DNA from: a phage
Strand: one strand, 5' to 3'
DNA: 64,000 bases
Sequence record: PZ445515.1
The translations under genes and the position numbers were made by a program. Below are positions 1,760 to 55,627 of the stretch, piece after piece; the first letter of the stretch is position 1; every line of letters starts with the position of its first letter. The notes below the pieces were generated by a model. The model was not told where the DNA came from. It made no database searches and worked only from the letters and a program-made list of their open reading frames with translations.

Positions 1760-1768
1760 TCTGCCTCC

Positions 1769-2197: not shown

Positions 2198-2199
2198 AT

Positions 2200-2706
2200 T
2201 TACACCTTAAATTGTTGTAGGGCTTTACACATTTCAAGATCTGGACTAAATTCTAGCATATAGCTAACAGCCATTAAATCTTGAAGATTTATTCCAGTTC
2301 TACCGTTGACTATAACCGTTGGATACTGGTACATCATAGCACCAGCGTCATCCAGAACACACCAATGTTTGAGCTTATGCTTTTCAACGAAGCGAAGAAC
2401 AGAATTACCCCTAGATAATCCACCCCCAGTAAAATCCGTTGTACCAAGAAAACGATCGATAAGACCTAATCCGGTCATAATCTGAACGTTCTCCATCTCA
2501 TTCCTGACAGAGAACCATGAGGATACTCCAACAATCATTATCGGAGAAGGACGAATAAAGTCCTGAAAAGCCTTGAGAAGCGGTTTGAAAACCCAATCAC
2601 TTCCAAAGAAAATCTTTTCGTCATCAGGTGCATGATGGTGGGAGATGCTCGAATTGAGCACCCCATCAATATCTAGAAAAATAATTGGAGTATTACTTAT
2701 TTCCAT
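2200..2706 (-). CDS. HAD-superfamily phosphatase-like protein
   Basis: 168 aa; HAD motif I FLDIDGVL near N-terminus and VLDDAG motif IV-like. Confidence 0.5.
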   Translation of the reverse strand: MEISNTPIIFLDIDGVLNSSISHHHAPDDEKIFFGSDWVFKPLLKAFQDFIRPSPIMIVGVSSWFSVRNEMENVQIMTGLGLIDRFLGTTDFTGGGLSRGNSVLRFVEKHKLKHWCVLDDAGAMMYQYPTVIVNGRTGINLQDLMAVSYMLEFSPDLEMCKALQQFKV

Positions 2707-2902
2707 TTTTGTTCCTTTCTAAGAACGTATCATACTCAACCGTATCAACATATATAACACCATAGTCATCGGATTTATAGTCCATCTCCCACAGCTCACA
2801 GCGATAGCACCAACTACCATCCGCCCATACAAATATATCATCGGGGTGTGTATATACAGATTTAACTATGGACATATCTGTTTCCCTTGCTTCTCGACAC
2901 AT
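2693..2902 (-). CDS. hypothetical small protein
   Basis: 69 aa ORF bridging HAD and Sir2 genes with short overlaps. Confidence 0.3.
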   Translation of the reverse strand: MCREARETDMSIVKSVYTHPDDIFVWADGSWCYRCELWEMDYKSDDYGVIYVDTVEYDTFLERNKNGNK

Positions 2903-3698
2903 AAGGTCTACCCTCTAAATGAGCTTCTACACGAGCAATAAAATCAGGGTCACTGAAAGCATCTACCGCACCTTTACTCCAGTAAGGGATACCGCGTTCC
3001 TCCAGCTGGTACATCTCACTACGAGTCATACCTTGATAGCCCGGTTCCGCTGCGAGGGCACTATCATAGTAGTTAACAACCATAAGTTTCGCAGCAGTCA
3101 AACTAAGAACAGGAAATAATTCCCAGTAGAAGTTAATTACTTGGTTAGAGCAACCAACCACAATGATCATATCTTGACTGGTAATACCATCAAAAACATT
3201 ATACATTTCTGCGTATGCAGGAGCATGCTCTCCAAAGAAGATTACATTAGGTTTAACCCATTTATAATCATCTGGATCAATAGAATTGTATCCTACATCA
3301 ATAATCCGTTTATTGCTACTATTGTAGCTATCAGCTACAACAACCTCTTTTAAATATCCGTGAATATGCAGAATGTCACTATGTGGAACGCCAGCACGCT
3401 CAATAAGGTCATCAACGTTGGTAGTCAAGTTTACTATTTGACCTGGATATTGTTTATACCATTCACCAATACGCAAATGCGCAAGATTGGGTTCAACAGT
3501 TTTTAGCTCTTCACGACGCTTGTTGTAAAACATATGGGTTTTATGATAAAAATTACCACGAAAGGCATGAATATTACATACTTCTTCTAGATCATAGTCA
3601 TCCCACAATGCTTTACCACTAGCAGTATCAGTACGGAAGGCTCGTACACCACTTTCAACACTCAAACCTGCACCACTAATAATAATTAATCTACGCAT
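2862..3698 (-). CDS. Sir2-family (sirtuin-like) NAD-binding protein
   Basis: 278 aa; N-terminal GAGLSVESGVRAFR matches sirtuin GAGIS-SGIP-FR motif, later HIHG; no Zn CxxC pairs seen. Confidence 0.6.
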   Translation of the reverse strand: MRRLIIISGAGLSVESGVRAFRTDTASGKALWDDYDLEEVCNIHAFRGNFYHKTHMFYNKRREELKTVEPNLAHLRIGEWYKQYPGQIVNLTTNVDDLIERAGVPHSDILHIHGYLKEVVVADSYNSSNKRIIDVGYNSIDPDDYKWVKPNVIFFGEHAPAYAEMYNVFDGITSQDMIIVVGCSNQVINFYWELFPVLSLTAAKLMVVNYYDSALAAEPGYQGMTRSEMYQLEERGIPYWSKGAVDAFSDPDFIARVEAHLEGRPYVSRSKGNRYVHS

Positions 3699-3912
3699 TT
3701 TTCACCTGTTCTCTGAAGTTTTGCCCAATACTGTCTAATAGCTCAGCTAATTCTTTATTGCCTTTCTCCATTAAGGTATTAGCAATAACTTCTAGCATAG
3801 TAGCGCAGGATTCAACACCATCCTTATAGCCAGTTTCCCAGTGCTGCATTAATGCGTTTTCCAAAGCAGCGTTTAAACCCTTATCTGGTAGCATCGGCTT
3901 CGAGAATGCCAT
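3691..3912 (-). CDS. hypothetical protein
   Basis: 73 aa ORF in operon-like array, start/stop overlap with neighbours. Confidence 0.45.
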   Translation of the reverse strand: MAFSKPMLPDKGLNAALENALMQHWETGYKDGVESCATMLEVIANTLMEKGNKELAELLDSIGQNFREQVKNA

Positions 3913-4105
3913 AAAGTTTCTCCTCTAGTTCCATGATACGATTTTCATAAGAGGCACGCAACTTTTCAATTGCCAGCGCACGCACTGTAACCTCATTAGA
4001 ATTAATAGCTAATTGGGCCAGATCTTCCGTTTCCATACGTCCGTTGTAAATTAAGCGATATTTAAGGTGTTTTACATTCTTAGTCATTATTAAACTCCAC
4101 TGCAA
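3881..4105 (-). CDS. hypothetical protein
   Basis: 74 aa ORF, coiled-coil-like, overlaps neighbours. Confidence 0.45.
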   Translation of the reverse strand: MQWSLIMTKNVKHLKYRLIYNGRMETEDLAQLAINSNEVTVRALAIEKLRASYENRIMELEEKLYGILEADATR

Positions 4106-4460
4106 CTGTTTCTAGGTCTTCGTCAGAAAAACTAGAGTATATATCTTTAAGATACTGTTTAATACTCCAAGTAATATCTTCGTACCCATTGGGGCTACGT
4201 TGGTATACTTTTAACACTCTATTATACACAAATTCAAGATTACATTTTACTTCATCTCTGTCTTCATCAAACAAGCAATATGGATTATAAGGTGATACAT
4301 CTAGATTTGTTCCCACCCAATCGCCAATAATGGTAGGGTATGCAACACCCTCTATATGCGAGTAATCACCTGTGGCAGCAAAGACAGCCTCAGCAATATC
4401 ATCCACACCCAGATGGAAACCACCACAAGTAGATTCAACTATATAGGGCTTTAATTCCAT
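4080..4460 (-). CDS. hypothetical protein
   Basis: 126 aa ORF downstream of nrdD; no radical-SAM CxxxCxxC so not NrdG. Confidence 0.5.
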   Translation of the reverse strand: MELKPYIVESTCGGFHLGVDDIAEAVFAATGDYSHIEGVAYPTIIGDWVGTNLDVSPYNPYCLFDEDRDEVKCNLEFVYNRVLKVYQRSPNGYEDITWSIKQYLKDIYSSFSDEDLETVAVEFNND

Positions 4461-4528
4461 ATCTTTCTCCTCTCAAATTTATAAATCTATTATATATAAA
4501 TTTTTGGCTGAAAGCAAATAAAATAAAA

Positions 4529-4553
4529 GCCAGGTCGACTAGCAACCCGGCTG
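4529..4553 (-). terminator. putative rho-independent terminator after nrdD
   Basis: Imperfect hairpin agccagg/cccggct followed on minus strand by T-run. Confidence 0.35.
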
Positions 4554-4559
4554 ATTAGC

Positions 4560-6434
4560 TTATTTAGCTCGAATATCCTGATGTTTCACCCTGCCCATAA
4601 CCTCATGCTGTTTGCCTGGGTTAAATGGACGAGCACCTGGATTTCCAAGATACCCACAAACTCGACGAGTTACTTCAAGAGTTTCGGGGTCGTGATTACC
4701 ACAGATAGGGCACTTAAACCCGTCTTCGGATGCTATTGTTTCACCTAAGAATCCACATTTACCACAAGAATCTACTGGAGTATTAATACCGAAGTAATGA
4801 ACCTTACTAGCAGCATAATTAATAACCCATTCCAGTGCATCTGGGAATCGTTTCATATCCGGTAGTTCTACATAGGAAATACATCCACCAGAAGCAATAG
4901 GAGTAAAGTTAGATTCATAATCAAATTTCACATTGGGAGCAACTTTACGTTCTACATCAAGGTGGTGCGAGTTAGTGTAGTATCCTTTAGACAGAATATC
5001 TTCATGCTCTGGGAAATATTCACGGTCTAGACGACAAAAACGGTCACATAGGGATTCTGATGGTGTAGCATACAGGCTATAACCTAACTTAGTTTCTTCC
5101 TTCTTCTGATCGACTCTATCCCGCATGTACTGCAATACACGCTGAACAAACTTGATGCAGGTCTCGGACATTGTGTCTACATCTTTGCCAAACATGAACT
5201 GTAGCATTTCATGGCAACCAATATACCCTAGAGATACAGAAGCACGGTTATAGAAATGATCGAATACATATTCATCAGGCTCCAAGCGCAGTCCAAAGGC
5301 TCCTGACATATAGAGGATGGGCGCAGCTTTAGCTTGAATGTATTTTAAGCGATCAACTCTCCACTCCAATGCTTTTAACGCTGTATCCACACGTAGCTCA
5401 AGTAAATCAAAGAATAGGTCAATATTTCCTTCAGCTTCGATAGCAATTCTAGGCAAGTTTACAGAAACAACACCTAAGTTATTACGACCGGCAGTTTCAC
5501 CATCTTCTGTAGCAGCTAAGAATGAACGGCAGCCCATAGAAACTTTATAGTCACCAGTAACTTCCACAACCTTATCATAGCTGATATAATCTGGATACAT
5601 ACGTTCAGCAGTACATTTCATAGCTAACTTCTTGATGTCATAATTAACATCTCCTGGTTTCATGTTAACGCCATCACGAAGTACAAATACCAGTTTCGGG
5701 AAGATAGCTGTACGTTTATTGATACCTAAGCCATCCATGCGTACTTTCAGTATTGCTTTCTGTACTAGACGTGCTTCCCAAGAAGTTCCTAGACCAAAAC
5801 CAAAGGTAATAAATGGACTCTGACCATTAGAGTTGAACATGGTATTGATTTCATATTCTAGACCCTGACAGGCATCATAAACTTCTTTTTCAGTCATCTC
5901 CGTAGCCATTACTGATGCTTTGGCCTCATCTTTAGTCCAACGTTTTGCAAACGCATGATTTTTGTCATAGGATTTACGAACATAAGGAGCTAATACTTCA
6001 TCAAGGCGATCCACGGAAGTACCACCATACTGATGGGAGCTAACCTGTGTGATAATCTGAGCTGTAATAGCTGCCGCAGTAGTGATAGAGTTTGGAGTGC
6101 TAATTTCAGCATTACCAACCTTCATACCATTCTTCAACATATCTTCCAGAGCTACCAGACAACAATTAGTCATGCCTAATGCAGCATAATCAGCATCATG
6201 GAAATGAATATCCCCAATCATATGAGCATTTCGAATCTGAATTGGCATTTCTTCTAGAATCAGATACTTACTCAATTCACCTGCAAGCATATCCCTCTGT
6301 GTAGGGAAACGTTCTGAGGGTTTATTGGCATTATTAAACAGCAGCTCTTCATCTGCTGACCCTTCGATAATCTCTTTGCAGTTTCTAATTAACGCCTGCA
6401 TTTCTTTATACTTTAGTTCTTCATTGCGATTCAT
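4560..6434 (-). CDS. nrdD: anaerobic ribonucleoside-triphosphate reductase (class III)
   Basis: 624 aa; C-terminal glycyl-radical motif RVCGYLG, Cys-rich C-terminus, overall NrdD-like. Confidence 0.9.
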   Translation of the reverse strand: MNRNEELKYKEMQALIRNCKEIIEGSADEELLFNNANKPSERFPTQRDMLAGELSKYLILEEMPIQIRNAHMIGDIHFHDADYAALGMTNCCLVALEDMLKNGMKVGNAEISTPNSITTAAAITAQIITQVSSHQYGGTSVDRLDEVLAPYVRKSYDKNHAFAKRWTKDEAKASVMATEMTEKEVYDACQGLEYEINTMFNSNGQSPFITFGFGLGTSWEARLVQKAILKVRMDGLGINKRTAIFPKLVFVLRDGVNMKPGDVNYDIKKLAMKCTAERMYPDYISYDKVVEVTGDYKVSMGCRSFLAATEDGETAGRNNLGVVSVNLPRIAIEAEGNIDLFFDLLELRVDTALKALEWRVDRLKYIQAKAAPILYMSGAFGLRLEPDEYVFDHFYNRASVSLGYIGCHEMLQFMFGKDVDTMSETCIKFVQRVLQYMRDRVDQKKEETKLGYSLYATPSESLCDRFCRLDREYFPEHEDILSKGYYTNSHHLDVERKVAPNVKFDYESNFTPIASGGCISYVELPDMKRFPDALEWVINYAASKVHYFGINTPVDSCGKCGFLGETIASEDGFKCPICGNHDPETLEVTRRVCGYLGNPGARPFNPGKQHEVMGRVKHQDIRAK

Positions 6435-6684
6435 TATACTCTCCTTCTCTAACTAAGACTACTATTATAACTCATTCGAGGGCGGATGTCAACAATATTT
6501 TACTATAAAGTTCTGTAACATGATCTGAGTCAAAAAATTTTATTTGCCAATCTCTATTAAAAATTGTATAATCACGCACTCGTGCACGCGATATAAAATG
6601 ATTATCTAGTATCACACATCTCACGTTAAAAGCAAGCAAATTTTTTATTTAAATGCAATATCATAGGCTTATTTAAAATTGTAG

Positions 6685-6713
6685 TTGCTTTTTACTGTAT
6701 ATATTGGTATAAT
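6685..6713 (+). promoter_or_regulatory. sigma70-type early promoter
   Basis: TTGCTT -35, 17 bp spacer, TATAAT -10. Confidence 0.55.
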
Positions 6714-6786
6714 ATATTTGTAAGTTGATAAACAAGATCTTTTTGTTGATCCTCTGTTAGCGAAGTACACTATAGGAGTGTTATTT

Positions 6787-7539
6787 ATGGGAAAAGCACG
6801 TCAAAAAAGAGAGAACCGCAATGGTTCAAGAAAGCGTGGCAACAAGTATGAGAATAACGTAATTCAGGCTGATTTTTCTAATGATTACGCTAACCCAGTT
6901 GCTAAATCCCTAGTAGGTAAAAACCGCGAGCAAAAATCATATATCAATATGATCAAGAACAACACAGTGACTGTGGGCATCGGTGAGCCAGGTACTGGTA
7001 AAACCTTTATTCCGTCCGTTCTTGCAGCTCAGGAACTCGTAGACATTCACTCAGATATTGAGCAAGTGATCCTCGTACGTCCTAATGAACCTCTAGGTAA
7101 GTCTCTTGGTATGCTTCCTGGTGATCTAGCAGAAAAGCTAGAGCCTTGGTTGGAGCCAATAGCTGATGGTATGAAATGGGCCATCGGCGATCATGCCTAT
7201 AAGGGATATGTCGAACGTCAGAAAATTAAATTTTTGGCTGTCGAACATGCTCGTGGCAGAACTTTCAACAACTCCTATGTAATTGTCGATGAAGCTCAGA
7301 ATATTTCCGTTGAGGCAATGATTTGTCTTCTAACTCGTGTAGGGCAAGACTGCCGTTTAATTATCTGCGGAGATATAGCTCAGAAAGACATTAAAGGTGA
7401 CTCAGGTCTAGCACTCCTTATGGAAGTCTATGAGAAATACGAAAATGCCCCATTCTCAATGATCGAATTGATTGATAACGTTCGTTCTGTTGAGTCTAAA
7501 GCATTCTATGACATCTTTAAAGACATGGGGAAGGTGTAA
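6787..7539 (+). CDS. phoH: PhoH-like ATPase
   Basis: Walker A GEPGTGKTF and DEAQN Walker B; ATG at 6787 after GGAG. Confidence 0.85.
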   Translation: MGKARQKRENRNGSRKRGNKYENNVIQADFSNDYANPVAKSLVGKNREQKSYINMIKNNTVTVGIGEPGTGKTFIPSVLAAQELVDIHSDIEQVILVRPNEPLGKSLGMLPGDLAEKLEPWLEPIADGMKWAIGDHAYKGYVERQKIKFLAVEHARGRTFNNSYVIVDEAQNISVEAMICLLTRVGQDCRLIICGDIAQKDIKGDSGLALLMEVYEKYENAPFSMIELIDNVRSVESKAFYDIFKDMGKV

Positions 7540-7540
7540 T

Positions 7541-7762
7541 ATGGGAAACGTCGTTCATCTGAGCCGTAAAACTAAAATACATCGTACTTCACTGAGTGCT
7601 GCTAATATGATTACACGTAAGGAAGGGGAAGAAAGTCCTAAGACAACCCTAGCGTGGAAAATTGTAACCTCAAATCCAAATAAACCATTCAATTATAACG
7701 AGTTGAGCACCTCCATAGATATTCTATTAAAAGAAGTAGCTAGAACTAAAGTAATTGAATAA
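7541..7762 (+). CDS. hypothetical protein
   Basis: 73 aa ORF, ATG immediately after phoH stop. Confidence 0.45.
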   Translation: MGNVVHLSRKTKIHRTSLSAANMITRKEGEESPKTTLAWKIVTSNPNKPFNYNELSTSIDILLKEVARTKVIE

Positions 7763-7904
7763 GCTAAAAAGCTAGACTGGTAATATACAGGGCCTGGGTA
7801 TGAAAATACTCGGGCCTTTTCTATCAGAAAATTTTATTTGCCTAATGACCGATAATAAAGTAGAATATTCCTTAAATCCTGATAACTATAAAAAGGAAAG
7901 CCAA

Positions 7905-10235
7905 ATGAGCCATCGCATTGAAAAAGTAATTAAACGTGACGGTACTGTAGAAGACTTTGCTCCTGAAAAAATCAATGGTTGGGCAGAGTATGGTTGCAAA
8001 ACAGTTGATGTAAGCTGGTCAGCCATTACTATGGCTGCTCAAAAAACTCTGCCTAAAGGGGTTGTAGATTCCGACACTCTGATGGATGCATTAATTAAAG
8101 CTGCTGAAAGTCTTATTAAAGATAATCCAGCATACGATGTGCCAGCAAAGGAATTACGTCTTGCGCAAATGCGTAAACGCCTTTATGACTCTTTCGAACC
8201 ACCTTCTTTACGCTTCTTCCATGACCACATGGTTAGCGTAGGTGCATGGGAAGACATGAGTGCATGGATTACCGATGAGCAATTTGAAGCTCTGAATCAG
8301 GTTATCGACCATGATCGTGACCGTCTTTTTACTAGTGGTGGGCTGAAGCAGTTCTTTGATAAGTATTCCCGTCGTAATATAGCCACTGGTGAAATTTATG
8401 AAACCCCGCAATTCGCCTACATGGGTATGGCAATGGCGATGTTATCTCAACCTAACTGGACAATTCTAGATGCAATCGACCTCTACAACGCAATGTCGCT
8501 CCACAAAATCAACGTTCCTACGCCGCCACTGGTTGGTCTGCGCTCTAGTGACCGTGGATTTGCTAGTTGCTGTCTCGTGGATTCCACTGACACGTTGGAT
8601 TCAATCGACACCGCCGAGCACATCGTCTTCAAAATGGTCGCAGCCAGAGCGGGAATCGGGTATCATCTTGAAAGCCGATCAATTGCTGATCCGGTGCGAA
8701 ATGGGGCATTCCCGCATTCCGGAAAACTGCCGTATTATCGACACATTGACCGCTCAGTAAAGGCCAATACTCAGCAAACTCGTGGTGGTTCTGCTACAGT
8801 GTCTTATCCATACTTCGACCCTGAAATCATTCAATTGATGCAGGTTAAGCAACAACGTGCTACAGATGAGAATAAAATCGATAAGATGGATTATTCTCTG
8901 AGCTTTAACAATCTTTTGTTAAAACGTTATCTTAAAAACGAAGATATTACGCTAATGTCATACTTCTATGCTCCAGAAGTTCATGAAGCGTTTTATAGTG
9001 ATGACGAGGCTAAATTTGAAGAAATCTACGTGGCAGCGGAGAAACGTGTGGCATCTCTTACAAAGATCGACCACGAAGGAAAAACAGTTCCTGCAGCTCC
9101 TAAAGTCTCTGCAAAAGAAATCCTAGATACTTGGCTACGTATCCGAATGGAAACAGGACGTATGTATGCTCACCACATTGGGGAATCTAATCGTCACGGT
9201 AACTTCCTTGATCCGATCCGTATGACAAACCTTTGTGTTGAAATTACTCAGCCTACACGCCCGTTCCATCACATTACAGAGCTGTACAAGACAAAAGAGC
9301 AGCTTGATCAAATGAAGCCGGAGGATATTGGTGAAGTATCTCTGTGTAACTTAGGTGGTGTTGTACTTGGACGCATGGAATCTCTGGCTGAGTGGGAAAA
9401 AACTTGCTACATCCTTCTGAAATTCGTTGATACAATTATTGAAATTCAGGATTATCCGTTCCCAACTATGGAATATACGGCTAAGAAACGTCGTAATGTC
9501 GGTATTGGCCTAATGAACGCAGCAGGTGCAATGGCAGCAGAAGGTCTGGCTTACGAAGGTATTGAAGCTCGTAACTGGATCCACCGTGAGGCTGAAAAAC
9601 TGTCTTACTTCCTGCATAAAGCCTCTGTACGCCTGGCTAAGGAACAGGGTGCATGTGAGTGGTTTGATCGTACTAAACCATCTAAAGGAATTCTGGTAAT
9701 CGACACGTACAAGAAAACTGTTGATGAGCTGGTATCCGTAGGTCTAGAAATGGACTGGGAGTCTCTGCGTGCAGATATTCTGAAATATGGTATGCGTAAC
9801 TCTGTTCTGACTGCTCAGATGCCGGGAGAAAGTTCTTCTGTTCTGTTAGGTGTTACTAACTCTATCGAACCACCTCGTAAGATTGTATCTATCAAGGGTA
9901 GTGCAGTAAATAAAGTAATTGCAATTGCTCCAGGTGCAACCGATTGGGAAACGTTAATGAGCTATAAATTGGCTTATGATGTAGATCGTATCGAGTGGAT
10001 CAAATGGGTAGCAACTATGCAGAAATTCTTCAGCCAGTCTGTTAGTACTAATATGTACTACGACTACACCAAGTTTGAGAATGAAATTATTCCTGGCCCA
10101 GTAGTAGTTCGTGATTTCATGACTGCTGTTAAATACGGGTGGAAAACTTGGTATTATGCTAACTTCAACACCGCAAATGGTGGTGGTGCTGGAGAAGAAG
10201 CAGCTGGTTGTGCATCAGGCGGTTGTACTATTTAA
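7905..10235 (+). CDS. nrdA: ribonucleotide reductase class I large subunit
   Basis: 776 aa from ATG 7905; N-terminal ATP-cone (VIKRDGTVEDF), C-terminal CxxGGC tail. Confidence 0.9.
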   Translation: MSHRIEKVIKRDGTVEDFAPEKINGWAEYGCKTVDVSWSAITMAAQKTLPKGVVDSDTLMDALIKAAESLIKDNPAYDVPAKELRLAQMRKRLYDSFEPPSLRFFHDHMVSVGAWEDMSAWITDEQFEALNQVIDHDRDRLFTSGGLKQFFDKYSRRNIATGEIYETPQFAYMGMAMAMLSQPNWTILDAIDLYNAMSLHKINVPTPPLVGLRSSDRGFASCCLVDSTDTLDSIDTAEHIVFKMVAARAGIGYHLESRSIADPVRNGAFPHSGKLPYYRHIDRSVKANTQQTRGGSATVSYPYFDPEIIQLMQVKQQRATDENKIDKMDYSLSFNNLLLKRYLKNEDITLMSYFYAPEVHEAFYSDDEAKFEEIYVAAEKRVASLTKIDHEGKTVPAAPKVSAKEILDTWLRIRMETGRMYAHHIGESNRHGNFLDPIRMTNLCVEITQPTRPFHHITELYKTKEQLDQMKPEDIGEVSLCNLGGVVLGRMESLAEWEKTCYILLKFVDTIIEIQDYPFPTMEYTAKKRRNVGIGLMNAAGAMAAEGLAYEGIEARNWIHREAEKLSYFLHKASVRLAKEQGACEWFDRTKPSKGILVIDTYKKTVDELVSVGLEMDWESLRADILKYGMRNSVLTAQMPGESSSVLLGVTNSIEPPRKIVSIKGSAVNKVIAIAPGATDWETLMSYKLAYDVDRIEWIKWVATMQKFFSQSVSTNMYYDYTKFENEIIPGPVVVRDFMTAVKYGWKTWYYANFNTANGGGAGEEAAGCASGGCTI

Positions 10236-10243
10236 TAAAAACA

Positions 10244-10268
10244 AGGAGATCTTCGGGTCTCCTTTTTC
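10244..10268 (+). terminator. rho-independent terminator
   Basis: Hairpin aggagatc-ttcg-ggtctcct then TTTTTC. Confidence 0.7.
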
Positions 10269-10281
10269 TTTGAAATTTTAC

Positions 10282-10310
10282 TTGCTAATCGCTACCAGAT
10301 TTGCTATAAT
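10282..10310 (+). promoter_or_regulatory. T5-type early promoter
   Basis: TTGCTA -35, 17 bp, TATAAT -10. Confidence 0.6.
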
Positions 10311-10341
10311 ATTCCTGAAATAGTGAGAAAGAGGAAAATCA

Positions 10342-11487
10342 ATGACTACTTTACTAAACCTGAATTGGGATCATACTAACGCCGACCTTTTCCTGGGAGA
10401 TTCTCTCGGTATCGCAGATTATGTACGTGTAGCACATCCAGAACTAGAACGTCTGGCACTTCTGCAGCGCTCTCAATTTTGGACTGAAACTGAAATCAGT
10501 CTGGAAGCAGATAAGAAACAATGGCCTAATCTCCCACGAGAAATTCAGGAAATTACACTCCTGAACTTAGCATGGCAAACTCAAACTGATTCCTTTATCA
10601 GTCGTGCCCCTGAAGCAGCTATTATGCCGCTTGTAAGTCGTCCAGAATTGGAAGGTATGCTCAAACAGTGGAGCTATTTTGAAGACCTGCATAGTCGTGC
10701 TTATAGCAATATTATTCGTAATGTGCTGACTGATCCAGCAGAATTTATTGATTCTGTAACCAAAAACCAAGAAGCATTCGCGCGCATCGCTGATTCTGTT
10801 GAACTATTCGATGAACTGTACCAGTTAGGTCAGTATTTCATCGCAGTACGCGATCATCGTGGCGACAATACATATCCAGAAACTGAGTTCCCTGAAGTTA
10901 AACGTGAAACTCAGGCTAAACTATTAGACGCTTACTTTGCGATCTATGGTCTGGAAGCAATGCAGTTTTACGCATCCTTTGCATGTACCTTTGCATTAGC
11001 AGAGAACGATATTCTGCAAGGTATTGCTAAAAATCTGCAATTAATCGCTAAAGATGAAGCTCTGCACACTCAGATGTCCAAAGCAATCATCCAGATTATG
11101 TTTCAGCAATTTGACAAAGATCTGGTAGATGAAGCAGTGGCTAAAGCACCAGCACAGCTCCTGAAAACTCTGAAAACTGAAATTGAATGGGGTCATTTCA
11201 TTTTCAAAGGTCGTAGTCTGATTGGCTTGAATGCAGAACTTCTAGAAGAATATCTGTATTTTGTGGGACGTAATGCATTTATGCACATCGGTGTAGAATG
11301 GCCTAGTCATTTACCAGTAATCACCAAAAACCCTATTCCGTGGATTATGAACTGGTTGGATACTACTTCTCTACAGCCTGCTCCACAAGAAATCCAGATT
11401 GGTGCAGCCTACCGTGTAGGTCAGGTAACTGAGACCTCTACTGATACTCTGAAAGATCTGGGTAATGAATTTGGAGATTTCTTATGA
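10342..11487 (+). CDS. nrdB: ribonucleotide reductase class I small subunit
   Basis: 381 aa; R2-like diiron motifs incl. EALHTQ; follows nrdA. Confidence 0.9.
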   Translation: MTTLLNLNWDHTNADLFLGDSLGIADYVRVAHPELERLALLQRSQFWTETEISLEADKKQWPNLPREIQEITLLNLAWQTQTDSFISRAPEAAIMPLVSRPELEGMLKQWSYFEDLHSRAYSNIIRNVLTDPAEFIDSVTKNQEAFARIADSVELFDELYQLGQYFIAVRDHRGDNTYPETEFPEVKRETQAKLLDAYFAIYGLEAMQFYASFACTFALAENDILQGIAKNLQLIAKDEALHTQMSKAIIQIMFQQFDKDLVDEAVAKAPAQLLKTLKTEIEWGHFIFKGRSLIGLNAELLEEYLYFVGRNAFMHIGVEWPSHLPVITKNPIPWIMNWLDTTSLQPAPQEIQIGAAYRVGQVTETSTDTLKDLGNEFGDFL

Positions 11488-49919: not shown

Positions 49920-50520
49920 TGTCGGATTTGCACATTGTGTTTCTAGAAATTTATGGTCGGATTTGCACAATTGCCTAAGTTTTTAGGAACATATAATCTC
50001 TTGAAAATGGCAGCATTATTTCGGGCCGAAGGCCCATGATTGCCTGAGTTTTTAGAGCCACAGAAACTTTCACTTGTCAAGCTATTTTGCCCCATTTAGC
50101 TAATAAGATTTTACTTTATCTGCACTAATCTCAAATTAACCCAAATCTTCTCAACTCTTCCCCAAAATCCCCGCAAATCAGGTGCTACGCACCAAACATG
50201 CGCCCCTCTCGCAGTTCCCTCAAATTTTTCTCGATCTCTCAACTTCTCCCCAAACTCTTACAATCACACACTCTCCAATCGAAGTCACAAAAATCTTGTC
50301 GGATTCGCACAAATAAACCCATGTCGGATTTGCATATATTCTAGTTAATTCCACAGGATTGATGCGCAGCATCGGATTGCTGGAGTTTTTAGGAAAATTC
50401 ATTGTCGGATCCGCACATTATAAAAATTTTTCGGGTCGGATTTGCACACTACCAAAAATTGTCGGATTCGCACATACACGCCCACGCGTAATCCATGGGG
50501 GCAAATGTCGGATTTGCACA
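49920..50520. repeat. array of 8 direct copies of 15-bp motif TGTCGGATTTGCACA (injection-stop-signal-like repeats)
   Basis: Copies at 49920, 49955, 50297, 50322, 50403, 50434, 50460, 50506 with 1-2 substitutions; no ORF. Confidence 0.8.
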
Positions 50521-50559
50521 AAAGCGCAGGGCAATTGCCCTGCTTGCCTGAATACGAAT

Positions 50560-50750
50560 GATAATGAGAATCATTCTCATTTAAAAAGCGGAATGTGAAT
50601 GATAATAATTCGCATTTAAGAATGGAAGTGAGAATTATTCAGGAAGTGAAACGATTCTCATTTAAAAAGTGGAATGATTATTAGTTAGATAGTGAAATGC
50701 GAATGATACTGATTCGTATTTAAGAATGGAAGTGAGAAACACTATTATTT
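50560..50750. repeat. tandem approx. 90-bp repeat pair with palindromic cores
   Basis: Units alternate gagaatcattctcatttaaaaagYggaatg and gaatgata...ttcgYatttaagaatggaagtgagaa; extra copy near 51059. Confidence 0.7.
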
Positions 50751-50753
50751 AAG

Positions 50754-50846
50754 TTATCCACAGACTTATCAACAGCACGATTTGACTTGACAAAATCCTA
50801 GCCATTTTGAGGCGTTATCAACAGACTTATCAACAGCTTATCCTAC
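50754..50846. promoter_or_regulatory. DnaA-box cluster I
   Basis: Perfect TTATCCACA at 50754 plus TTATCAACA x3 and TTATCCTAC within 90 bp. Confidence 0.6.
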
Positions 50847-51414
50847 TGTATAAATATACAGTATTCCTATGCAGTGAATAATTCTAATATACAGCTAAAA
50901 CGCTCTCAAACGCATTCTAACGCGTTTAATTTTGTTGGGGATACTAAAACACGGGTAAAATTGGAGGAGGCTTAGAAATTAGTTAGCGAGCTAACGATCA
51001 CACAAGGCGACACGTAACACCCTAATCATTAGCAGGCTAACCATCGCGGGCGCGGTTAAATGAGAATCATTCTCATTTGAAAATTGGGGGCACTCCCTGA
51101 TAGTTGCGCCCCGTGATTATTAGTCTGGTAGTCGATGCGTGATTTTTTCCTCCTCCCCGTAGGAATCCACCAAATACTGATAATAACCATCGTGATCATA
51201 AATCACTTTATCATATTCGCCACGCTCGACCGCTTGCCGATTCTCCGGCGTATCTGGCACGTAAAAACATCAACCATTGTACTGATCTTGGTTACAACTA
51301 TTTTATTACTCATAATAACTCCCTAGTAAATATATTTTTGCCAATAGTGGCGAATGTTATCGCCACCAGCGGAATCATTAGCGGCCTTACTATTACCAAC
51401 GAAAATATATAATC

Positions 51415-51774
51415 TCATTGCGCCACCTTTCGAAACGCTGTTTCAATACTATCCGCAGTGGATTGAATATATGCGCCTTTCATTATCAGGCGCTCGGTAC
51501 ATACCTTGCGGAAAATATTAATAAAATCATCTTCATTTTCTGCAATTAATGCTTCACCCATAACCTGAACGTCACAAGATGCAAAGGTCAAAAATTGAAA
51601 CGCTAGTTCACGGGCAACGACCGCATTAATTTTATAATGTGCCTTGCCCTCATAAATATTAATAACGCCCTTATAAGCTGGGGAAAGCTGATTTAAATAG
51701 TTTGCTAATAATGCTGGGCGGCAATTAGCAACAAAACGATTGCCTTCATAAATTATCATTTGCATAGCTCCCAA
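51415..51774 (-). CDS. hypothetical pre-early-region protein
   Basis: 119 aa ORF, last gene of leftward operon. Confidence 0.55.
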   Translation of the reverse strand: MGAMQMIIYEGNRFVANCRPALLANYLNQLSPAYKGVINIYEGKAHYKINAVVARELAFQFLTFASCDVQVMGEALIAENEDDFINIFRKVCTERLIMKGAYIQSTADSIETAFRKVAQ

Positions 51775-51878
51775 ATAGTTCCGCCGATGATCATTAGCTG
51801 ACTAATAATTATCAGAATAAAACCAATTGAAGGCAGGACGCCCCAAAAACGAAAAGCCGTTTTAATTTGCTGAATCAT
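51759..51878 (-). CDS. hypothetical small membrane peptide
   Basis: 39 aa hydrophobic ORF overlapping neighbours. Confidence 0.3.
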
Positions 51879-52005
51879 TTGTTAGCCTCCCGATTAGATA
51901 GCCAGATAAAAGCATAAAGATCCCCAATGAAATGGGGTCATTTTTAAATAAGGTGGCGATAAAACCGCCAGCCATTGCAAGGATAATAACAATAACGCTT
52001 TTCAT
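51862..52005 (-). CDS. hypothetical small membrane peptide
   Basis: 47 aa hydrophobic ORF. Confidence 0.3.
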   Translation of the reverse strand: MKSVIVIILAMAGGFIATLFKNDPISLGIFMLLSGYLIGRLTNDSAN

Positions 52006-52214
52006 AGTACCCCACGAAACGCAGCGTAAAAGGTGGCAAAGTGTTTAACTGTTTCAGCTATCACGTTGCCGCGCTTATCAAATTTTTTCTCGGTAACACG
52101 AAAGGCATTTTTGTTACGTGCTACATATTCGATTTTACAATCTTCCCGCTCGAACGTGTTAACATCCACCAGCTTAAAGCCTTTCGAACGTGCAAGGGAA
52201 ACGTTGCGGATCAT
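52002..52214 (-). CDS. hypothetical protein
   Basis: 70 aa ORF with AGGAGA RBS. Confidence 0.5.
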   Translation of the reverse strand: MIRNVSLARSKGFKLVDVNTFEREDCKIEYVARNKNAFRVTEKKFDKRGNVIAETVKHFATFYAAFRGVL

Positions 52215-52216
52215 TT

Positions 52217-52366
52217 TTATTCTCCTTTACTAGTCATGCAGCCCAGCAGATAAGAAAACGCAGCAATGCCAGCGCCAATAATAACGGCGTGAACGCCAAA
52301 AGCTATTGCAAACAACGATAAAATAGCGCCCAAGATACCCGCCAGAATAGCTCGAAAAATAACCAT
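52217..52366 (-). CDS. hypothetical small membrane peptide
   Basis: 49 aa hydrophobic ORF with AGGAGA RBS. Confidence 0.35.
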   Translation of the reverse strand: MVIFRAILAGILGAILSLFAIAFGVHAVIIGAGIAAFSYLLGCMTSKGE

Positions 52367-52413
52367 TTTTTATTCTCCTAGTCAGTGGGGGATATAATAT
52401 CCCCCGTTACTAA

Positions 52414-52644
52414 TTACATTAAAACAATTTTTGCAGCTTGTTTTTTAGTACAGTGTTCCGCTTTCAGCGTGTCCAGCAAAAAGCCCGCCGTTTGCTGATC
52501 GATTTTATCGGCGTTGTATAGTTCTTGGATGGTGTTATAAGTTTTAGCAATGCCGAACTCCTGCACCATTTCATGAATAATGGCGCGGTTAGATACCCAG
52601 CCTTGAGCGGTGAACAGATGAGTAGCAGAAGAGTAAGCAACCAT
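52414..52644 (-). CDS. hypothetical protein
   Basis: 76 aa ORF. Confidence 0.5.
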   Translation of the reverse strand: MVAYSSATHLFTAQGWVSNRAIIHEMVQEFGIAKTYNTIQELYNADKIDQQTAGFLLDTLKAEHCTKKQAAKIVLM

Positions 52645-52747
52645 TTTAAGCCTCCAAATTTTTGGGAAATTTTTAATCCACCGTTTTGGTGTAAAGGCAT
52701 TATAACAAAAAAGCCACCATAAAAGGCGACCTTTACAAAACTTTACA

Positions 52748-53242
52748 TTAAACTACTTGTAAGGACTCAACATTGAAACATCGTTTCAATTCGTCATGCA
52801 AAACAGCGTATTCCTCCCATCGGGTATTATCAGGAATATAAACAAGCTGTTTTAATCGATTTGCGTATATTACCGCTTTGTTACCAACTATCTCGACGCC
52901 GCCATATTTAATAATTAATTTCATGACGGAATTAATAGGATCGCCGCCGTTTACATATGTGCCGGATTTACTTAGCTGATAATGATAAAGGCTTGCGTAT
53001 ACGTTTTCATTTTCATACCATTCGCCAGTATCCTCGTCTTCATAGCCATCGCTACCAAAACGAGAAGCATTATCAATAGCCATTTCATGAGCGAAAGCGT
53101 CCAGATCCGTACCAGCAGGAACAAAATATTCCTCGGTGTTCCCTTCCCCGCAATAGCCAGTATGGCAATCGACTAAAATGATCATATCGTGTTTAGCCGT
53201 GCTTACTTCCCCTAGCGAGAAGCCGTATTTTTCATCAGCCAT
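52748..53242 (-). CDS. hypothetical protein
   Basis: 164 aa ORF with RBS. Confidence 0.55.
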   Translation of the reverse strand: MADEKYGFSLGEVSTAKHDMIILVDCHTGYCGEGNTEEYFVPAGTDLDAFAHEMAIDNASRFGSDGYEDEDTGEWYENENVYASLYHYQLSKSGTYVNGGDPINSVMKLIIKYGGVEIVGNKAVIYANRLKQLVYIPDNTRWEEYAVLHDELKRCFNVESLQVV

Positions 53243-53307
53243 TAGTTAGCCTCCTATTAATTAACAAGGGAATAGTAAAGCGGGGTAACAATCCCCGCTA
53301 AATATTA

Positions 53308-54318
53308 TTACTCGCTTTCGGTGTTAGTGGTAAAAGTAGAAATATCGATACCTTTTACCATTTCATCAATCATTTCAGCGATGTTAAAACTTTGCACCAT
53401 TTCTAACATTGCCGCTTCCATAGCCGCCCCTGCTACCGCTTTCGCTTTCTGGTTAGTCGGTGCGTACTGGTCAACCGCTACACTCAGCAGGTTAGCAATC
53501 ACTACTCGACCAATAGGCGTATCGATATAACCTTTGATCATGAACGGTGCTTTTTTAGCCGCTACTTTCGTGATTTGAGTTAATGCAATCTTACCCGCTT
53601 CCAGTTTTGCAGCGTTTACAGCAGCGGATTTATTAGCGGCAACGATGTTAGCAATCTTGGTCATGGTATTTTTTCCTTTGTTTTCAGTAGTTTGAGTATT
53701 AACGTTTTGAGTGTTAGAATTTACAGCATGGTTTTCTACGCTGTCAATAATCTGATCTTCATCTTTCCAGAAAGAAAAACCAGCGCTTTCTATATCCCCA
53801 TCATAAATATATGGGTATAGCTCCCGTGGTAACAAAAAATTACCATCGCCATCAAAAGCCATTATAGCGGTATATTGAGATCCGTCGTTATCCGGCTTAT
53901 GCCATCCAGCAGGTAAATACTTCCAGATAACATCTAAAAATCCCTCAATGCTAGAAAGTCCATTTATCAGATCAAGCCCAATAAGCTCGAAACCATTTAT
54001 ATTAAATGATTGACGGCCTGAATTGCTATGATACGCAACAATATTATTGCCCTGCGCAATAATAAAATCGGCATCCGGCCCCGCTCCCCTGCCTGTAAAG
54101 ATATGGCAATCCCGATTATATAAAACAAGCGTTGCCCCTTGTTTATATAACGGCAAAAAACCATCCATATCATAAGCGTCATAATCATCAAAAAAGTTTT
54201 GATGAATAGTTTCAGCCTTGTTAATAAAATGTTTAATGCTGGTTGACTTGCTACCATCCAGCAGGTTGCGCAATGCACCTTTTAAAACGGTGGCATTATC
54301 AGGTTTATACAGCCTCAT
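53308..54318 (-). CDS. hypothetical protein
   Basis: 336 aa from ATG 54318 preceded by GAGGGAGG; first gene of leftward operon. Confidence 0.55.
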   Translation of the reverse strand: MRLYKPDNATVLKGALRNLLDGSKSTSIKHFINKAETIHQNFFDDYDAYDMDGFLPLYKQGATLVLYNRDCHIFTGRGAGPDADFIIAQGNNIVAYHSNSGRQSFNINGFELIGLDLINGLSSIEGFLDVIWKYLPAGWHKPDNDGSQYTAIMAFDGDGNFLLPRELYPYIYDGDIESAGFSFWKDEDQIIDSVENHAVNSNTQNVNTQTTENKGKNTMTKIANIVAANKSAAVNAAKLEAGKIALTQITKVAAKKAPFMIKGYIDTPIGRVVIANLLSVAVDQYAPTNQKAKAVAGAAMEAAMLEMVQSFNIAEMIDEMVKGIDISTFTTNTESE

Positions 54319-54600
54319 TTGTTCGGCCTCCCTCGTTAATCGGTGAGTGAATGATATAGATATTTGTTCACTAGGGGCAAGAAAAAAGAAAATGTTTTTT
54401 ATTCCTTGCCTAGCGCCTAGTTTTATGCTAACCGCGCAGCGGTGCAATAAAGAGCAAAACACGGCGAAGCCACCAGGGCGACGGGTGAAGGCTTTACTTT
54501 AATATTACCCCACCGCATTTAGTTCGTTAGAAAGCGTTTTAGGCCGCTTGAAATTGATTGCAGTTGTTAACACTACCTTTTTACCCTGTATATTTATACA

Positions 54601-55020
54601 GTAGGATAACCTGTGGATAAGTCTGTGTAAAAGTCCTTATATCGCCGCCTATCGTGTCAAATTATTTTGTGCTGTGGAAAACATTGTGGATAACTTAAAT
54701 GATAGTGGTTCTCACTTAGACCGATGATTTCTTATAGTTATTATTTCTCATTAATTTATATGTATATTATATATCATGAAATAGTTAGTTAGCTAATGAG
54801 ATTTTCCGTGATTAATAGTCTGCTAATAATTTAAGCCGTTACAATCCACCAGCATGATTATCATCCTAGCAATTATTAGCCTGCTATCTTTCTGATGCAT
54901 ACTAACAAATAAAAGTCAATTAATTTATTTTATAAAATAAGTAGTTATCCACTGGAAAATAAAAGTCAAGTGGATAACTAGGAAAATTTCATTTTTGCTT
55001 TTGGGGATAAGTTATCAACA
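54601..55020. promoter_or_regulatory. DnaA-box cluster II in divergent intergenic region
   Basis: TGTGGATAA at 54612 and 54685, TTATCCAC 54945, GTGGATAAC 54970, TTATCAACA 55012; very AT-rich. Confidence 0.55.
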
Positions 55021-55423
55021 AGGCTAGAATGCGTCTAAAACGCCCTAGAACGCGATGAAGTTTTTAGCCATCCCATCATAAGGGGGCACGCCGTTTATCG
55101 CTGCCACGAGCTTTTTAGATTTTGTCAAGTAGGGCAAAGCAAATATAAATGAAAAAATTACTTGCCTATTTGCTTTATTTTGTGGTATTCGCGCGCCCGT
55201 TTCTTTTAATTTTAGGCCGTCGCCGCACGCCATTCGGTGGATCATGTCTTTACGTTTCTTTACAAAAATAAGGTTGCGCCATTTTTGGTATTTGCTATTA
55301 TTTATCTCGTAGGGCGGCAATGACGAACTACACGGCGGGAAGTTTACCGCCACGCTCTTTAAAAATTGGGTATATCTTAAAGCCTATCGGCGGTAAACTT
55401 ATCTATTATAAGGAATCGACGAT

Positions 55424-55627
55424 ATGAAACAAACTTTATTGATCACTGGTAAACCTAGCAAGGCACTGGATAGCGAAACTAAAAAATTGTTGACAGTAGC
55501 GCAAAGATCGGTAAAATACCGATTCACGCAGTACAAGAAAGGCCGCCAGCAAGGTTTAGAAATGATCTGGCGAAACATTATGATTGACTTGAAAGAAAAT
55601 CATAAAAAACTGCAAAAAATTGTTTGA
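55424..55627 (+). CDS. hypothetical protein
   Basis: 67 aa ORF. Confidence 0.45.
   Translation: MKQTLLITGKPSKALDSETKKLLTVAQRSVKYRFTQYKKGRQQGLEMIWRNIMIDLKENHKKLQKIV

Follow-up and report, generated by a model that had tools for sequence, protein, structure and literature searches.

A leftward gene block in the terminal repeat of a T5-like phage is probably its second pre-early unit, with three accessory cassettes

What is the run of eight minus-strand ORFs at positions 51,415 to 54,318 of phage record PZ445515.1, and does it encode new early functions? The window, by which we mean the whole 64,000-nucleotide stretch that was analyzed, is 100% identical to Escherichia phage T5_ev212, in which the eight-ORF block occupies 6.1-9.4 kb. 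The block falls within the annotated LTR of MM-1 (1-10407) and of T5 (1-10219). It is flanked on one side by a unit on the opposite strand with homologues of hdi, A2, A1, and dmp (window 55.4-60.4 kb), which adjoins it directly, and on the other side by the injection-stop repeats. Enclosure by the terminal repeat of T5 and its close relatives, together with a conserved 011 promoter upstream, bears out the premise of the original prediction that this is first-step-transfer (FST) DNA. We conclude that the block is very likely the second of two divergent pre-early units of a T5-like phage (Tequintavirus), made up of T5 genes 011-017 and three accessory cassettes (Table 1). Pre-early expression, toxicity, the nickase mechanism, and dispensability are taken from the literature; location, orthology, selection, and architecture were computed here.

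Table 1. Genes, modules, and regulatory features of the leftward unit, in window coordinates
Feature	Position	Strand	Ribosome-binding motif	Junction with next gene	Remarks
Putative sigma-70 promoter of the unit	54351..54380	-			-35 TTGCCC, 18-nt spacer, -10 TATCAT; consensus scan
Gene 011 orthologue, 336 aa	53308..54318	-	GAGGGAGG	65-nt gap with stable hairpin	DUF7566, phrog_4263; 90% identity to T5.011
011 C-module, 118 aa	53308..53664	-			Starts at Met219; possible nested in-frame cistron
G+C-rich hairpin AGCGGGGATTGTTACCCCGCT after 011	53279..53299	-			-12.9 kcal/mol, z = -2.7
Accessory gene, 164 aa	52748..53242	-	AGGAGG	103-nt gap with stable hairpin	phrog_6741; missing from T5
Terminator-like hairpin and U-run after 164-aa gene	52709..52734	-			Homologue of T5 annotated rho-independent terminator (7534-7559)
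Gene 012 orthologue, 76 aa	52414..52644	-	GGAGG	47-nt gap with perfect palindrome	phrog_5145; 84% identity to T5.012
Perfect palindrome GGGGGATATTATATCCCCC in 012/013 gap	52387..52405	-			-16 kcal/mol, z = -3.2; no U-tail
Gene 013 orthologue, 49 aa	52217..52366	-	AGGAG	2-nt gap	Two TM, phrog_5607; 67% identity to T5.013
Gene 014 orthologue, 70 aa	52002..52214	-	AAGGAG	ATGA overlap	Basic (+7), phrog_4227; 100% identity to T5.014
Accessory peptide, 47 aa	51862..52005	-	GGGG only (weak)	17-nt overlap	phrog_19184, two predicted TM; start overlaps 014 stop
Accessory peptide, 40 aa	51756..51878	-	GGGAGG	ATGA overlap	One TM; stop overlaps 015 start
Gene 015 orthologue, 114 aa	51415..51759	-	GGGAGC	ATGA overlap	phrog_4379; 93% identity to T5.015
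31-aa ORF	51323..51418	-			phrog_22819; coupled to 015 stop; T5.016 position
T5.017 homologue, split	51120..51313	-			ORFs 51203-51313 and 51120-51260
Hairpin after last ORF, then AAUUUU	51087..51112	-			-16.5 kcal/mol, z = -2.8

Orthologues of T5.011-015 and 017 were found in matching order and on the matching strand at 67-100% identity, and a T5.016 orthologue is not present at the locus (tblastn matrix and PHROG in both cases). The unit shares with its rightward counterpart in the left terminal repeat of T5 (NC_005859) its position in the repeat, its promoter, and the order 011-012-013-014-015-(016)-017. The two phages differ in gene content. T5 lacks the 164-aa gene, which in the window phage lies between 011 and the terminator known from T5, and it also lacks the two genes for small transmembrane (TM) peptides found in the 014/015 interval of the window phage. 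Conversely, hegG, the homing endonuclease gene of T5, is missing upstream in the window phage, where a 31-aa ORF takes the place of T5.016 and T5.017 is frameshifted. All eight minus-strand ORFs originally called do exist, with coordinates that are exact or a few bases off; two needed correction, one being the end of the 40-aa ORF (51756, not 51759). Purifying selection acts on every ORF, the small ones included, with pN/pS values of 0.09-0.30 among T5-like phages.

The description of the block as eight unknown genes was overstated, and the absence of recognisable families was incorrect. Seven of the eight ORFs match PHROG families at E <= 1e-30, and 011 belongs to Pfam DUF7566. Five are orthologues of T5.011, 012, 013, 014, and 015, which have been cloned, toxicity-tested, and block-deleted, and one of these five (the T5.015 orthologue) has a published biochemical mechanism. 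Searches of the ORFs against NCBIfam gave no match, and Pfam gave no meaningful match to any ORF other than 011. When all PDB chains were compared by sequence with 011, the 164-aa protein, 012, 014, 015, and a profile of the 011 C-module, none matched at E <= 0.5, and an Rfam scan of 50500-55500 returned two sub-threshold chance matches and nothing else. By published work on T5 (PMC10644984), genes of such a unit would be expressed within minutes of infection, ahead of second-step transfer, and then be shut off by A1. Pre-early genes are transcribed in the related Tequintavirus Bas33, and proteomics detected 10 of its 17 pre-early products (PMC13250531). CRISPRi-ART found only A1 and A2 to be highly important within the FST region, and T5 lacking hegG to 017 grows on E. 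coli F with smaller plaques. Given that three host-toxic products and one characterized DNA nickase have been published, the block is real but mostly ordinary. The region has already been described in a classic model phage, so that its confirmation adds little. T5-like phages are absent from the HIDEN-SEQ preprint. Rad, the T5-family anti-retron protein, was dropped as a candidate member of the block because it is located outside the region.

An A/T-rich tract lies upstream of the putative promoter, which is conserved across genera: its -10 hexamer is nearly invariant in T5, AKFV33, EPS7, and phiR2-01, as is the leader that follows, TTTATCATTCACTCACCGATTAACGAGGGAGG. Its T5 counterpart, annotated at 6411-6489 in NC_005859, has been experimentally characterized, and the site would function as a promoter in the window phage as well. 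Downstream, the unit is less uniform than the tightly packed, ATGA-joined operon first proposed. ATGA overlaps occur at two of the seven junctions within the block (014/47-aa and 40-aa/015) and not at the other five, and a third joins 015 to the 31-aa ORF beyond the block. Tight packing holds from 013 to 015 only, as hairpins part 011, the 164-aa gene, and 012. Folding against shuffles gave z-scores of -2.7 to -3.2 for the hairpins in the 011/164-aa, 164-aa/012, and 012/013 gaps. The hairpin after 011 has a poor U-tail and bounds the 164-aa cassette on its upstream side; T5 lacks this hairpin, and T5 011 runs straight into the next hairpin. Directly after that terminator-like hairpin, at 52699-52707, lies an extended -10-like motif, TGTTATAAT. 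Because hairpins follow both 011 and the 164-aa gene, there may be more than one transcript, and a single operon is therefore not established. Our guess is that the palindrome between 012 and 013 stabilizes the transcript or serves in its processing. The unit probably ends at the hairpin that follows the last ORF, ahead of the injection-stop repeats, and the transcript boundaries are predicted ones.

The gene with the best-defined product is 015. From its sequence, the 114-aa ORF is the orthologue of the Ung-dependent AP-site nickase T5.015: the primers 15ATG and 15Stop, with which Annor et al. cloned the toxic '015' in a second laboratory, match the 114-aa gene, and in UniProt naming its UniRef cluster is called DNA-(apurinic or apyrimidinic site) endonuclease. 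The two genes have equal length, a shared PHROG, and shared flanking genes; unlike in T5, 015 is preceded in the window phage by two extra peptide genes. The most likely start is the ATG at 51759, which gives 114 aa as in T5 and in the T5_ev212 annotation, and not the TTG at 51774 chosen originally. T5.015 is an Ung-dependent AP-site endonuclease that nicks host DNA where Ung has created abasic sites (Mahata et al. 2021, PMC8201957), and its window-phage orthologue presumably has the same activity. A PDB sequence search found no solved structure for comparison. In RefSeq and PHROGs, the label "Ung-dependent endonuclease" sits on the 70-aa T5.014 / ORF015, and the UniRef name for the 014 protein is ORF015 or uncharacterised. 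Placing the label on 014 instead of the 114-aa T5.015 is apparently a mistake, one that spreads through annotation pipelines to many T5-like genomes and would be cheap to correct. Both 014 (pN/pS 0.09) and 012 (pN/pS 0.23) have T5 counterparts that were non-toxic in two studies (PMC8201957; bioRxiv 10.64898/2026.04.02.716235), and 012 has no match in Pfam or PDB.

Three tiny hydrophobic peptides had been noted in the block, and their GRAVY values of 1.69 (49 aa, gene 013), 1.03 (47 aa), and 1.17 (40 aa) agree with this. Gene 013 has a pN/pS of 0.12; T5.013, annotated with two TM domains, was toxic in one of two studies, and its expression alone leads to lysis-like damage (bioRxiv 10.64898/2026.04.02.716235). 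The 47-aa peptide, likewise annotated with two TM domains in AKFV33, occurs in 160 phage records, with identities of 51-100%. No PHROG family matched the 40-aa peptide, which is present in 8 of the 18 fetched loci on which its distribution is based, at 78-100% identity, where it stands by itself or has the 47-aa type on one side or the other. Small membrane peptides are swapped at the 014/015 junction: three unrelated TM types are interchangeable there, T5 lacks both the 47-aa and the 40-aa gene, and in T5 and phiR2-01 the slot is without a peptide. Holins and the T4 Imm/Sp-type exclusion proteins are small phage membrane proteins, and the three peptides are like them in size (40-50 aa) and in having one or two TM segments. 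Unlike holins, they would be expressed pre-early instead of late and have no adjoining endolysin, and no holin or exclusion-type family in Pfam, PHROG, or NCBIfam matched them. The holin assignment, which size and TM content would fit, was rejected because the genes lie in the pre-early repeat among non-lysis genes and match no holin family.

Could the 47-aa and 40-aa ORFs be chance ORFs in the 014/015 spacer rather than genes? All carriers preserve the frames, starts, and stops, both ORFs have a pN/pS of 0.24 (from few sequences for the 40-aa type), and the 47-aa type is retained across its 160 records down to 51% amino-acid identity. Each cassette has an ATGA coupling with 014 or with 015, a locus may carry just one of them or both in either order, and independent annotators also called both genes. 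These observations make a chance origin highly improbable, even though both ORFs are short and missing from T5, the 40-aa ORF has no PHROG family, the 47-aa ORF has a weak Shine-Dalgarno motif, and the selection estimates come from few distinct sequences. As genes, they might together with 013 serve phage entry or exclusion at the inner membrane, and not host killing or anti-defence. Examples would be stabilizing or gating the paused DNA-transfer channel, depolarizing the membrane, or excluding a superinfecting phage. The peptides would be produced during the pause in transfer, when phage DNA spans the envelope; T5.005, from the other pre-early unit, likewise has two TM segments, and A1 is membrane-associated (bioRxiv 10.1101/866236); swappable TM peptides of three unrelated types would fit a function exerted through general membrane insertion. 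However, T5 and phiR2-01 manage with an empty 014/015 slot, deletion of the block does not abolish second-step transfer, and the lysis-like damage on 013 over-expression fits a plain membrane toxin equally well. We consider a role in entry or exclusion distinctly unlikely.

A broader alternative is that the block is mainly anti-defence, and that one or more of its products account for the long-known shielding of T5-type DNA from restriction enzymes, CRISPR, or RecBCD by FST genes. The candidates would be 012, 014, the acidic 164-aa protein, and, in 011, the variable N-domain. Reports credit FST genes with protection from RecBCD and from nuclease-based defences (PMC10644984; bioRxiv 10.1101/866236), and the block is both a hot-spot of gene gain and loss and dispensable on laboratory hosts, as is usual for accessory counter-defence genes. 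Nevertheless, experiments link none of these genes to a defence system, and T5 without hegG-017 grows on RecBCD-proficient E. coli F, so that protection from RecBCD is probably encoded elsewhere. T5 has none of the 164-aa, 47-aa, and 40-aa genes and yet is restriction-insensitive, and Davison's candidate for restriction insensitivity, T5p007, belongs to the other unit (bioRxiv 10.1101/866236). The fast N-domain of 011 (pN/pS 0.37-0.53) does split Tequintavirus from Epseptimavirus, which reportedly differ in their insensitivity to restriction (PMC10644984), but this correlation is one among many differences between them. Similarly, the net charge of -16 calculated from the sequence of the 164-aa protein would suit an anti-defence function, but its predicted model is unlike known DNA mimics or any solved fold. 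An Ocr/ArdA-type DNA mimic was rejected for this protein: its acidity fits, but it has no likeness in fold or sequence to a known mimic. Overall, a mainly anti-defence block appears unlikely. The original view of small membrane peptides as typical anti-defence effectors likewise drew no support from these results or from the cited papers.

Gene 011 matches DUF7566 over its full length (380.9 bits; gathering threshold 27). The Pfam model treats DUF7566 as a single family, whereas here it splits into a fast-evolving N-domain (approximately residues 1-200), an N/Q/T-rich linker, and an autonomous C-module that is near-invariant (pN 0.010 vs pS 0.35, pN/pS 0.028 in 15 phages). The module recurs in 677 clusters (50% identity) and is C-terminal in every one; its start is a Met in 138 of 149, and an N-terminal HIRAN domain is present in 24 of 149. 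Many modules are stand-alone proteins of 115-135 aa, and the contigs examined from other large phages carry the module alone or behind HIRAN or other N-domains. HIRAN, a DNA-end-binding domain, is one of several unrelated N-domains that precede the module. An invariant, Shine-Dalgarno-like AAAGGA lies 6-9 nt before the Met219 ATG, consistent with separate translation of the C-module from an internal start. T7 gene 4A/4B and phiX174 A/A* are in-frame nested genes with a common C-terminus; like them, 011 has a conserved internal Met and Shine-Dalgarno-like purines at a domain boundary. Its downstream part is also a stand-alone gene elsewhere, and the nested-gene likeness to T7 and phiX174 is analogy alone. 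The AF2 model of 011 has low confidence (pLDDT 58), and fold comparison with it gave no informative match.

T5.011 is toxic and disorganizes the nucleoid (PMC8201957 for toxicity; bioRxiv 10.64898/2026.04.02.716235), and specialists say that its product defies functional prediction. We tentatively suggest that 011 may be a two-in-one modular early effector, whose C-module is also made alone, docks on a conserved nucleoid or replisome partner, and delivers swappable N-terminal warheads; on balance this is a speculative possibility. The partner could be of host or phage origin, and the warheads could be under diversifying pressure. If true, this reading would define a widespread, undescribed class of phage early proteins. 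The modularity also offers a handle on a toxic pre-early protein and ties 011 to a far larger set of phage proteins.

The toxic T5 products from the block are those of 011, 013, and 015, and a host-takeover role, as originally proposed, is upheld by published T5 work for this part of it, through the 015 nickase, the 011 nucleoid effect, and the lysis-like effect of 013. Toxicity of block products on over-expression is not proof of a role during infection. In the course that we envisage for the pre-early unit, adsorption would be followed by entry of the terminal-repeat end of the genome alone. Host sigma-70 RNA polymerase would start at the conserved 011 promoter and read leftward in window coordinates, through 011 and the 164-aa gene, to the terminator-like hairpin. 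The coupled run 012-013-014-47aa-40aa-015-31aa-017 would then be transcribed by read-through or, possibly, from an internal extended -10 promoter. The products would act as accessory host-takeover proteins and not in essential replication or transfer functions. Gp015 would bind host Ung and nick its abasic sites, arresting host replication and division. Gp011 would disturb the nucleoid, probably through docking of its near-invariant C-module onto a conserved partner, with an N-domain that is variable. Gp013, and possibly the 47-aa and 40-aa peptides, would insert into the inner membrane.

Natural losses occur in the block: 011-012 are gone in DT57C, and 011-013 are gone in S124. Accessory genes are swapped at two defined sites, the 014/015 junction and the 011/012 gap, which thus provide natural presence/absence panels for pre-early genes on defence-carrying hosts, panels that bear on how T5-type phages resist restriction. 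At the downstream end, alignment with EC148 and T5 shows that the T5.017 homologue has lost 1 nt from a T-run and is split as a result; the loss may be a genuine mutation or an error in sequencing the homopolymer. The phrog_6973 match covers positions 19-64 only. The neighboring 31-aa ORF is present in 11 of the 18 loci, with a pN/pS of 0.30.

The block at 51.1–54.4 kb, an unbroken series of same-strand ORFs on the minus strand, is very probably a T5-type second pre-early unit that encodes accessory host-takeover proteins. Its DNA matches Escherichia phage T5_ev212 (LR597659.1, 6092-9392, reverse complement) at 100% identity and many other Tequintavirus genomes at 88–97%. The T5_ev212 record is handled as a circle in the window, and since the window from 60692 onward is the record's other end, the assembly has a single collapsed copy of the terminal repeat. 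In MM-1 and T5, whose repeats are annotated, the block falls inside the left terminal repeat, that is, in first-step-transfer (FST) DNA; homologues of hdi (T5.008), T5.007, A2, T5.005, A1, and dmp lie on the other strand. The original prediction had made its reading conditional on this location, and these observations bear out that premise.

The divergent promoter region lacks hegG (T5.010), the HNH homing endonuclease gene of T5, consistent with homing endonucleases being sporadically distributed across T5-like phages. The -35 hexamer of the 011 promoter is preceded on its 5' side by a sequence block, GCGCGG.TA.CATAAAA..A.GC..TAGGCAAGGAA, that is kept from T5 to EPS7 and Yersinia phage phiR2-01 while its flanks diverge. 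This block may act as a regulatory site, for instance in A1-dependent shut-off.

Features of the pre-early block and its surroundings (window coordinates)
Feature	Position	Strand	T5 counterpart (identity)	Junction on the 3' side or content
hdi, T5.007, A2, T5.005, A1, dmp homologues	55.4-60.4 kb	opposite to block		
Divergent promoter region	54500-55420			only a 102-aa ORF (GTG start; record: 276 nt, hypothetical protein) and short ORFs
Conserved block upstream of 011	~54385-54440	minus		
011, 336 aa	53308-54318	minus	T5.011 (90%)	65-nt gap
C-terminal 118 codons of 011	53308-53664	minus		
Stable hairpin	53279-53299			in gap 3' of 011
164-aa gene	52748-53242	minus	none	103-nt gap
Stable hairpin	52709-52734			in gap 3' of 164-aa gene
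Extended -10-like motif, TGTTATAAT	52699-52707			
012, 76 aa	52414-52644	minus	T5.012 (84%)	47-nt gap
Stable hairpin, GGGGGATATTATATCCCCC	52387-52405			in gap 3' of 012
013, 49 aa	52217-52366	minus	T5.013 (67%)	2-nt gap
014, 70 aa	52002-52214	minus	T5.014 (100%)	ATGA overlap
014/015 slot	51756-52005			47-aa and 40-aa ORFs
47-aa ORF	51862-52005	minus	none	17-nt overlap
40-aa ORF	51756-51878	minus	none	ATGA overlap
015, 114 aa	51415-51759	minus	T5.015 (93%)	ATGA overlap
31-aa ORF	51323-51418	minus		
Break in T5.017 homologue	51240-51270			

All eight predicted ORFs are present, but two boundaries had been misplaced: the 40-aa ORF ends at 51756, and the ATG at 51759 is the most likely start of the last gene, in agreement with T5 and with the record's own annotation. 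Seven of the eight starts follow good Shine-Dalgarno motifs, while the 47-aa ORF has only GGGG. The description of the genes as tightly packed holds from 013 to 015 and beyond but not upstream, where three gaps contain hairpins. One of these, 3' of the 164-aa gene, is the counterpart of a rho-independent terminator annotated in T5, and the -10-like motif follows it directly. Given the gaps with their hairpins, the terminator counterpart, and this motif, a single uninterrupted operon is not established. The hairpin between 012 and 013 is a perfect 19-nt palindrome without a U-tail (-16 kcal/mol as RNA).

The genes had also been described as uniformly unknown, which is incorrect: five of the eight are orthologues of named T5 pre-early genes, seven have PHROG family matches, and 011 has a match to Pfam DUF7566. 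When T5.002–T5.017 were cloned, 008, 011, and 015 were toxic, and Gp015 was found to bind host Ung and nick the abasic sites that Ung makes (Mahata et al., 2021, PMC8201957). In a repeated toxicity screen, 011 caused a disorganized nucleoid, 013 lysis-like damage, and 015 elongated cells with condensed nucleoids; the same authors state that 011 'resists functional predictions' (Annor et al., 2026, bioRxiv 10.64898/2026.04.02.716235). A T5 mutant lacking hegG–017 is viable and forms smaller plaques (Annor et al., 2026), and CRISPRi-ART identified A1 and A2 as the only highly important genes in the FST region. In the Tequintavirus Bas33, pre-early transcripts and 10 of 17 pre-early proteins were detected (PMC13250531).

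T5 counterparts are missing for the 164-aa, 47-aa, and 40-aa ORFs. The 164-aa gene (phrog_6741) is inserted precisely between the stop codon of 011 and T5's terminator, carries its own hairpin and RBS, and occurs in about half of the compared loci, in Tequintavirus and Epseptimavirus alike. Its AlphaFold model is confident (pLDDT 86, pTM 0.80), and its structural relatives in BFVD are solely uncharacterized proteins from other large phages. These include My1 and Shivani proteins, and the family fits the My1_018-type ORF described by Davison (bioRxiv 866236) as common to My1, EPS7, Shivani, and others and missing from T5; that study also found this half of the FST DNA highly divergent, with many insertions and deletions. 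The protein is strongly acidic (net charge -16), yet it does not resemble known DNA mimics, and we rejected that assignment.

The 014/015 junction serves as a slot for variable cassettes in this phage and in the relatives compared (L002–L018). It is empty in T5 and phiR2-01; elsewhere it holds a 41–47-aa peptide with two transmembrane (TM) segments (47-aa type) alone, a 40–41-aa one-TM peptide (40-aa type) alone, or both types in either order. TrudiRoth has an unrelated 35-aa TM peptide at this position and Shivani a non-hydrophobic ORF. In the 12 loci with a 47-aa or 40-aa type, an ATGA overlap couples the first cassette to the 014 stop codon.

Alignment of 011 from 15 phages of the two genera revealed two regions under different constraint. 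The N-terminal ~200 residues are strongly divergent (pN 0.43–0.48, pN/pS 0.37–0.53), while the last ~106 residues are near-invariant despite diverged synonymous sites (pN 0.010, pS 0.35, ratio 0.028). When the 118-aa C-terminal part, which begins at Met219, was searched by phmmer against 1.84 billion representatives, this module was found in 677 clusters at 50% identity, at the C-terminus in every match. The N-terminal parts ahead of it span 0 to ~430 residues and are mostly unrelated to each other; among 149 proteins, a HIRAN domain is present in 24 and an ExoX-like domain in one. Structure and sequence searches returned no fold match and no solved relative for 011 or its C-terminal module. 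We infer that 011 is a conserved docking or oligomerizing module fused to a variable effector domain.

Stand-alone forms of the module (115–135 aa) are numerous. On one 104-kb contig, such a copy adjoins an A1-sized gene and a T5-type dNMPase and is ~6.5 kb away from the contig end; other copies sit in runs of small genes, read here as early-type regions, on other large phage-like contigs. A methionine begins the module in 138 of 149 proteins, preceded by Lys, Glu, and Gly codons that form a purine-rich, Shine-Dalgarno-like run; in all 15 T5-like loci, AAAGGA lies 6–9 nt 5' of this ATG. These sequence features suggest that the module may also be made alone from an internal start, as a nested in-frame gene.

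The Ung nickase name is probably misplaced in two databases. In RefSeq NC_005859 and PHROG (phrog_4227), the 70-aa T5.014 is called 'endonuclease nicking abasic sites generated by host uracil glycosylase Ung', a name that annotation pipelines have spread to many T5-like genomes. However, the gene list and numbering of Mahata et al. agree with those of NC_005859, and in the Annor et al. study the primers for '015', which was toxic with a matching phenotype, bind the 114-aa gene, whereas those for '014' bind the non-toxic 70-aa gene. UniRef agrees, with 'DNA-(apurinic or apyrimidinic site) endonuclease' as the name of the 114-aa cluster and 'ORF015 / uncharacterized' for the 70-aa cluster. The characterized nickase is therefore probably the 114-aa T5.015, and the T5.014 label a database error. 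The slip probably arose from synonyms such as those in the DT57C record (T5.014 = T5p013 = ORF015; T5.015 = T5p014 = ORF016).

In the host-takeover reading, host RNA polymerase would transcribe the unit from the conserved 011 promoter once the repeat enters. Among the products would be a nickase that uses Ung against host DNA, a two-domain protein that disturbs the nucleoid, small peptides that insert into the membrane, and several further proteins, all dispensable on laboratory hosts. That the block is instead an anti-defence cluster appears unlikely. FST-encoded protection from nucleases is real and has no assigned gene (PMC10644984; bioRxiv 866236), the block behaves as an accessory hot-spot, and the 011 N-terminal domain follows a genus split said to correlate with restriction insensitivity. 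However, T5 does without the 164-aa, 47-aa, and 40-aa genes, and the block deletion mutant still grows on RecBCD-proficient cells.

Two further explanations rank below pre-early host takeover. That the peptides act in DNA transfer or exclusion is somewhat less probable still than an anti-defence cluster, and the two smallest ORFs are very unlikely to be spurious. Purifying selection acts on all ORFs (pN/pS 0.09–0.30 across 18 T5-like loci), the 47-aa peptide is present in 160 phage records, and the block ORFs are genes rather than chance ORFs. Overall, the original prediction described a real but partly mischaracterized feature in the right setting, and its suggestion of host takeover was partly right, that of anti-defence unsupported. 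The region itself is already known; by-products of value are the accessory-gene slots now defined, the probable database mislabel, and an architecture of DUF7566 that is modular and may be nested.

Two reading frames are interrupted. In MM-1 (7874-8883), a frame break within the conserved C-terminal module has led to the annotation of 011 as two CDS of 780 and 234 nt; the break may reflect either natural truncation or a sequencing error. In the window, the T5.017 homologue is disrupted by a 1-nt deletion in a T-run (5 T versus 6 in EC148 and T5), which could reflect either a sequencing error at the homopolymer or a true frameshift that this evolved strain carries.
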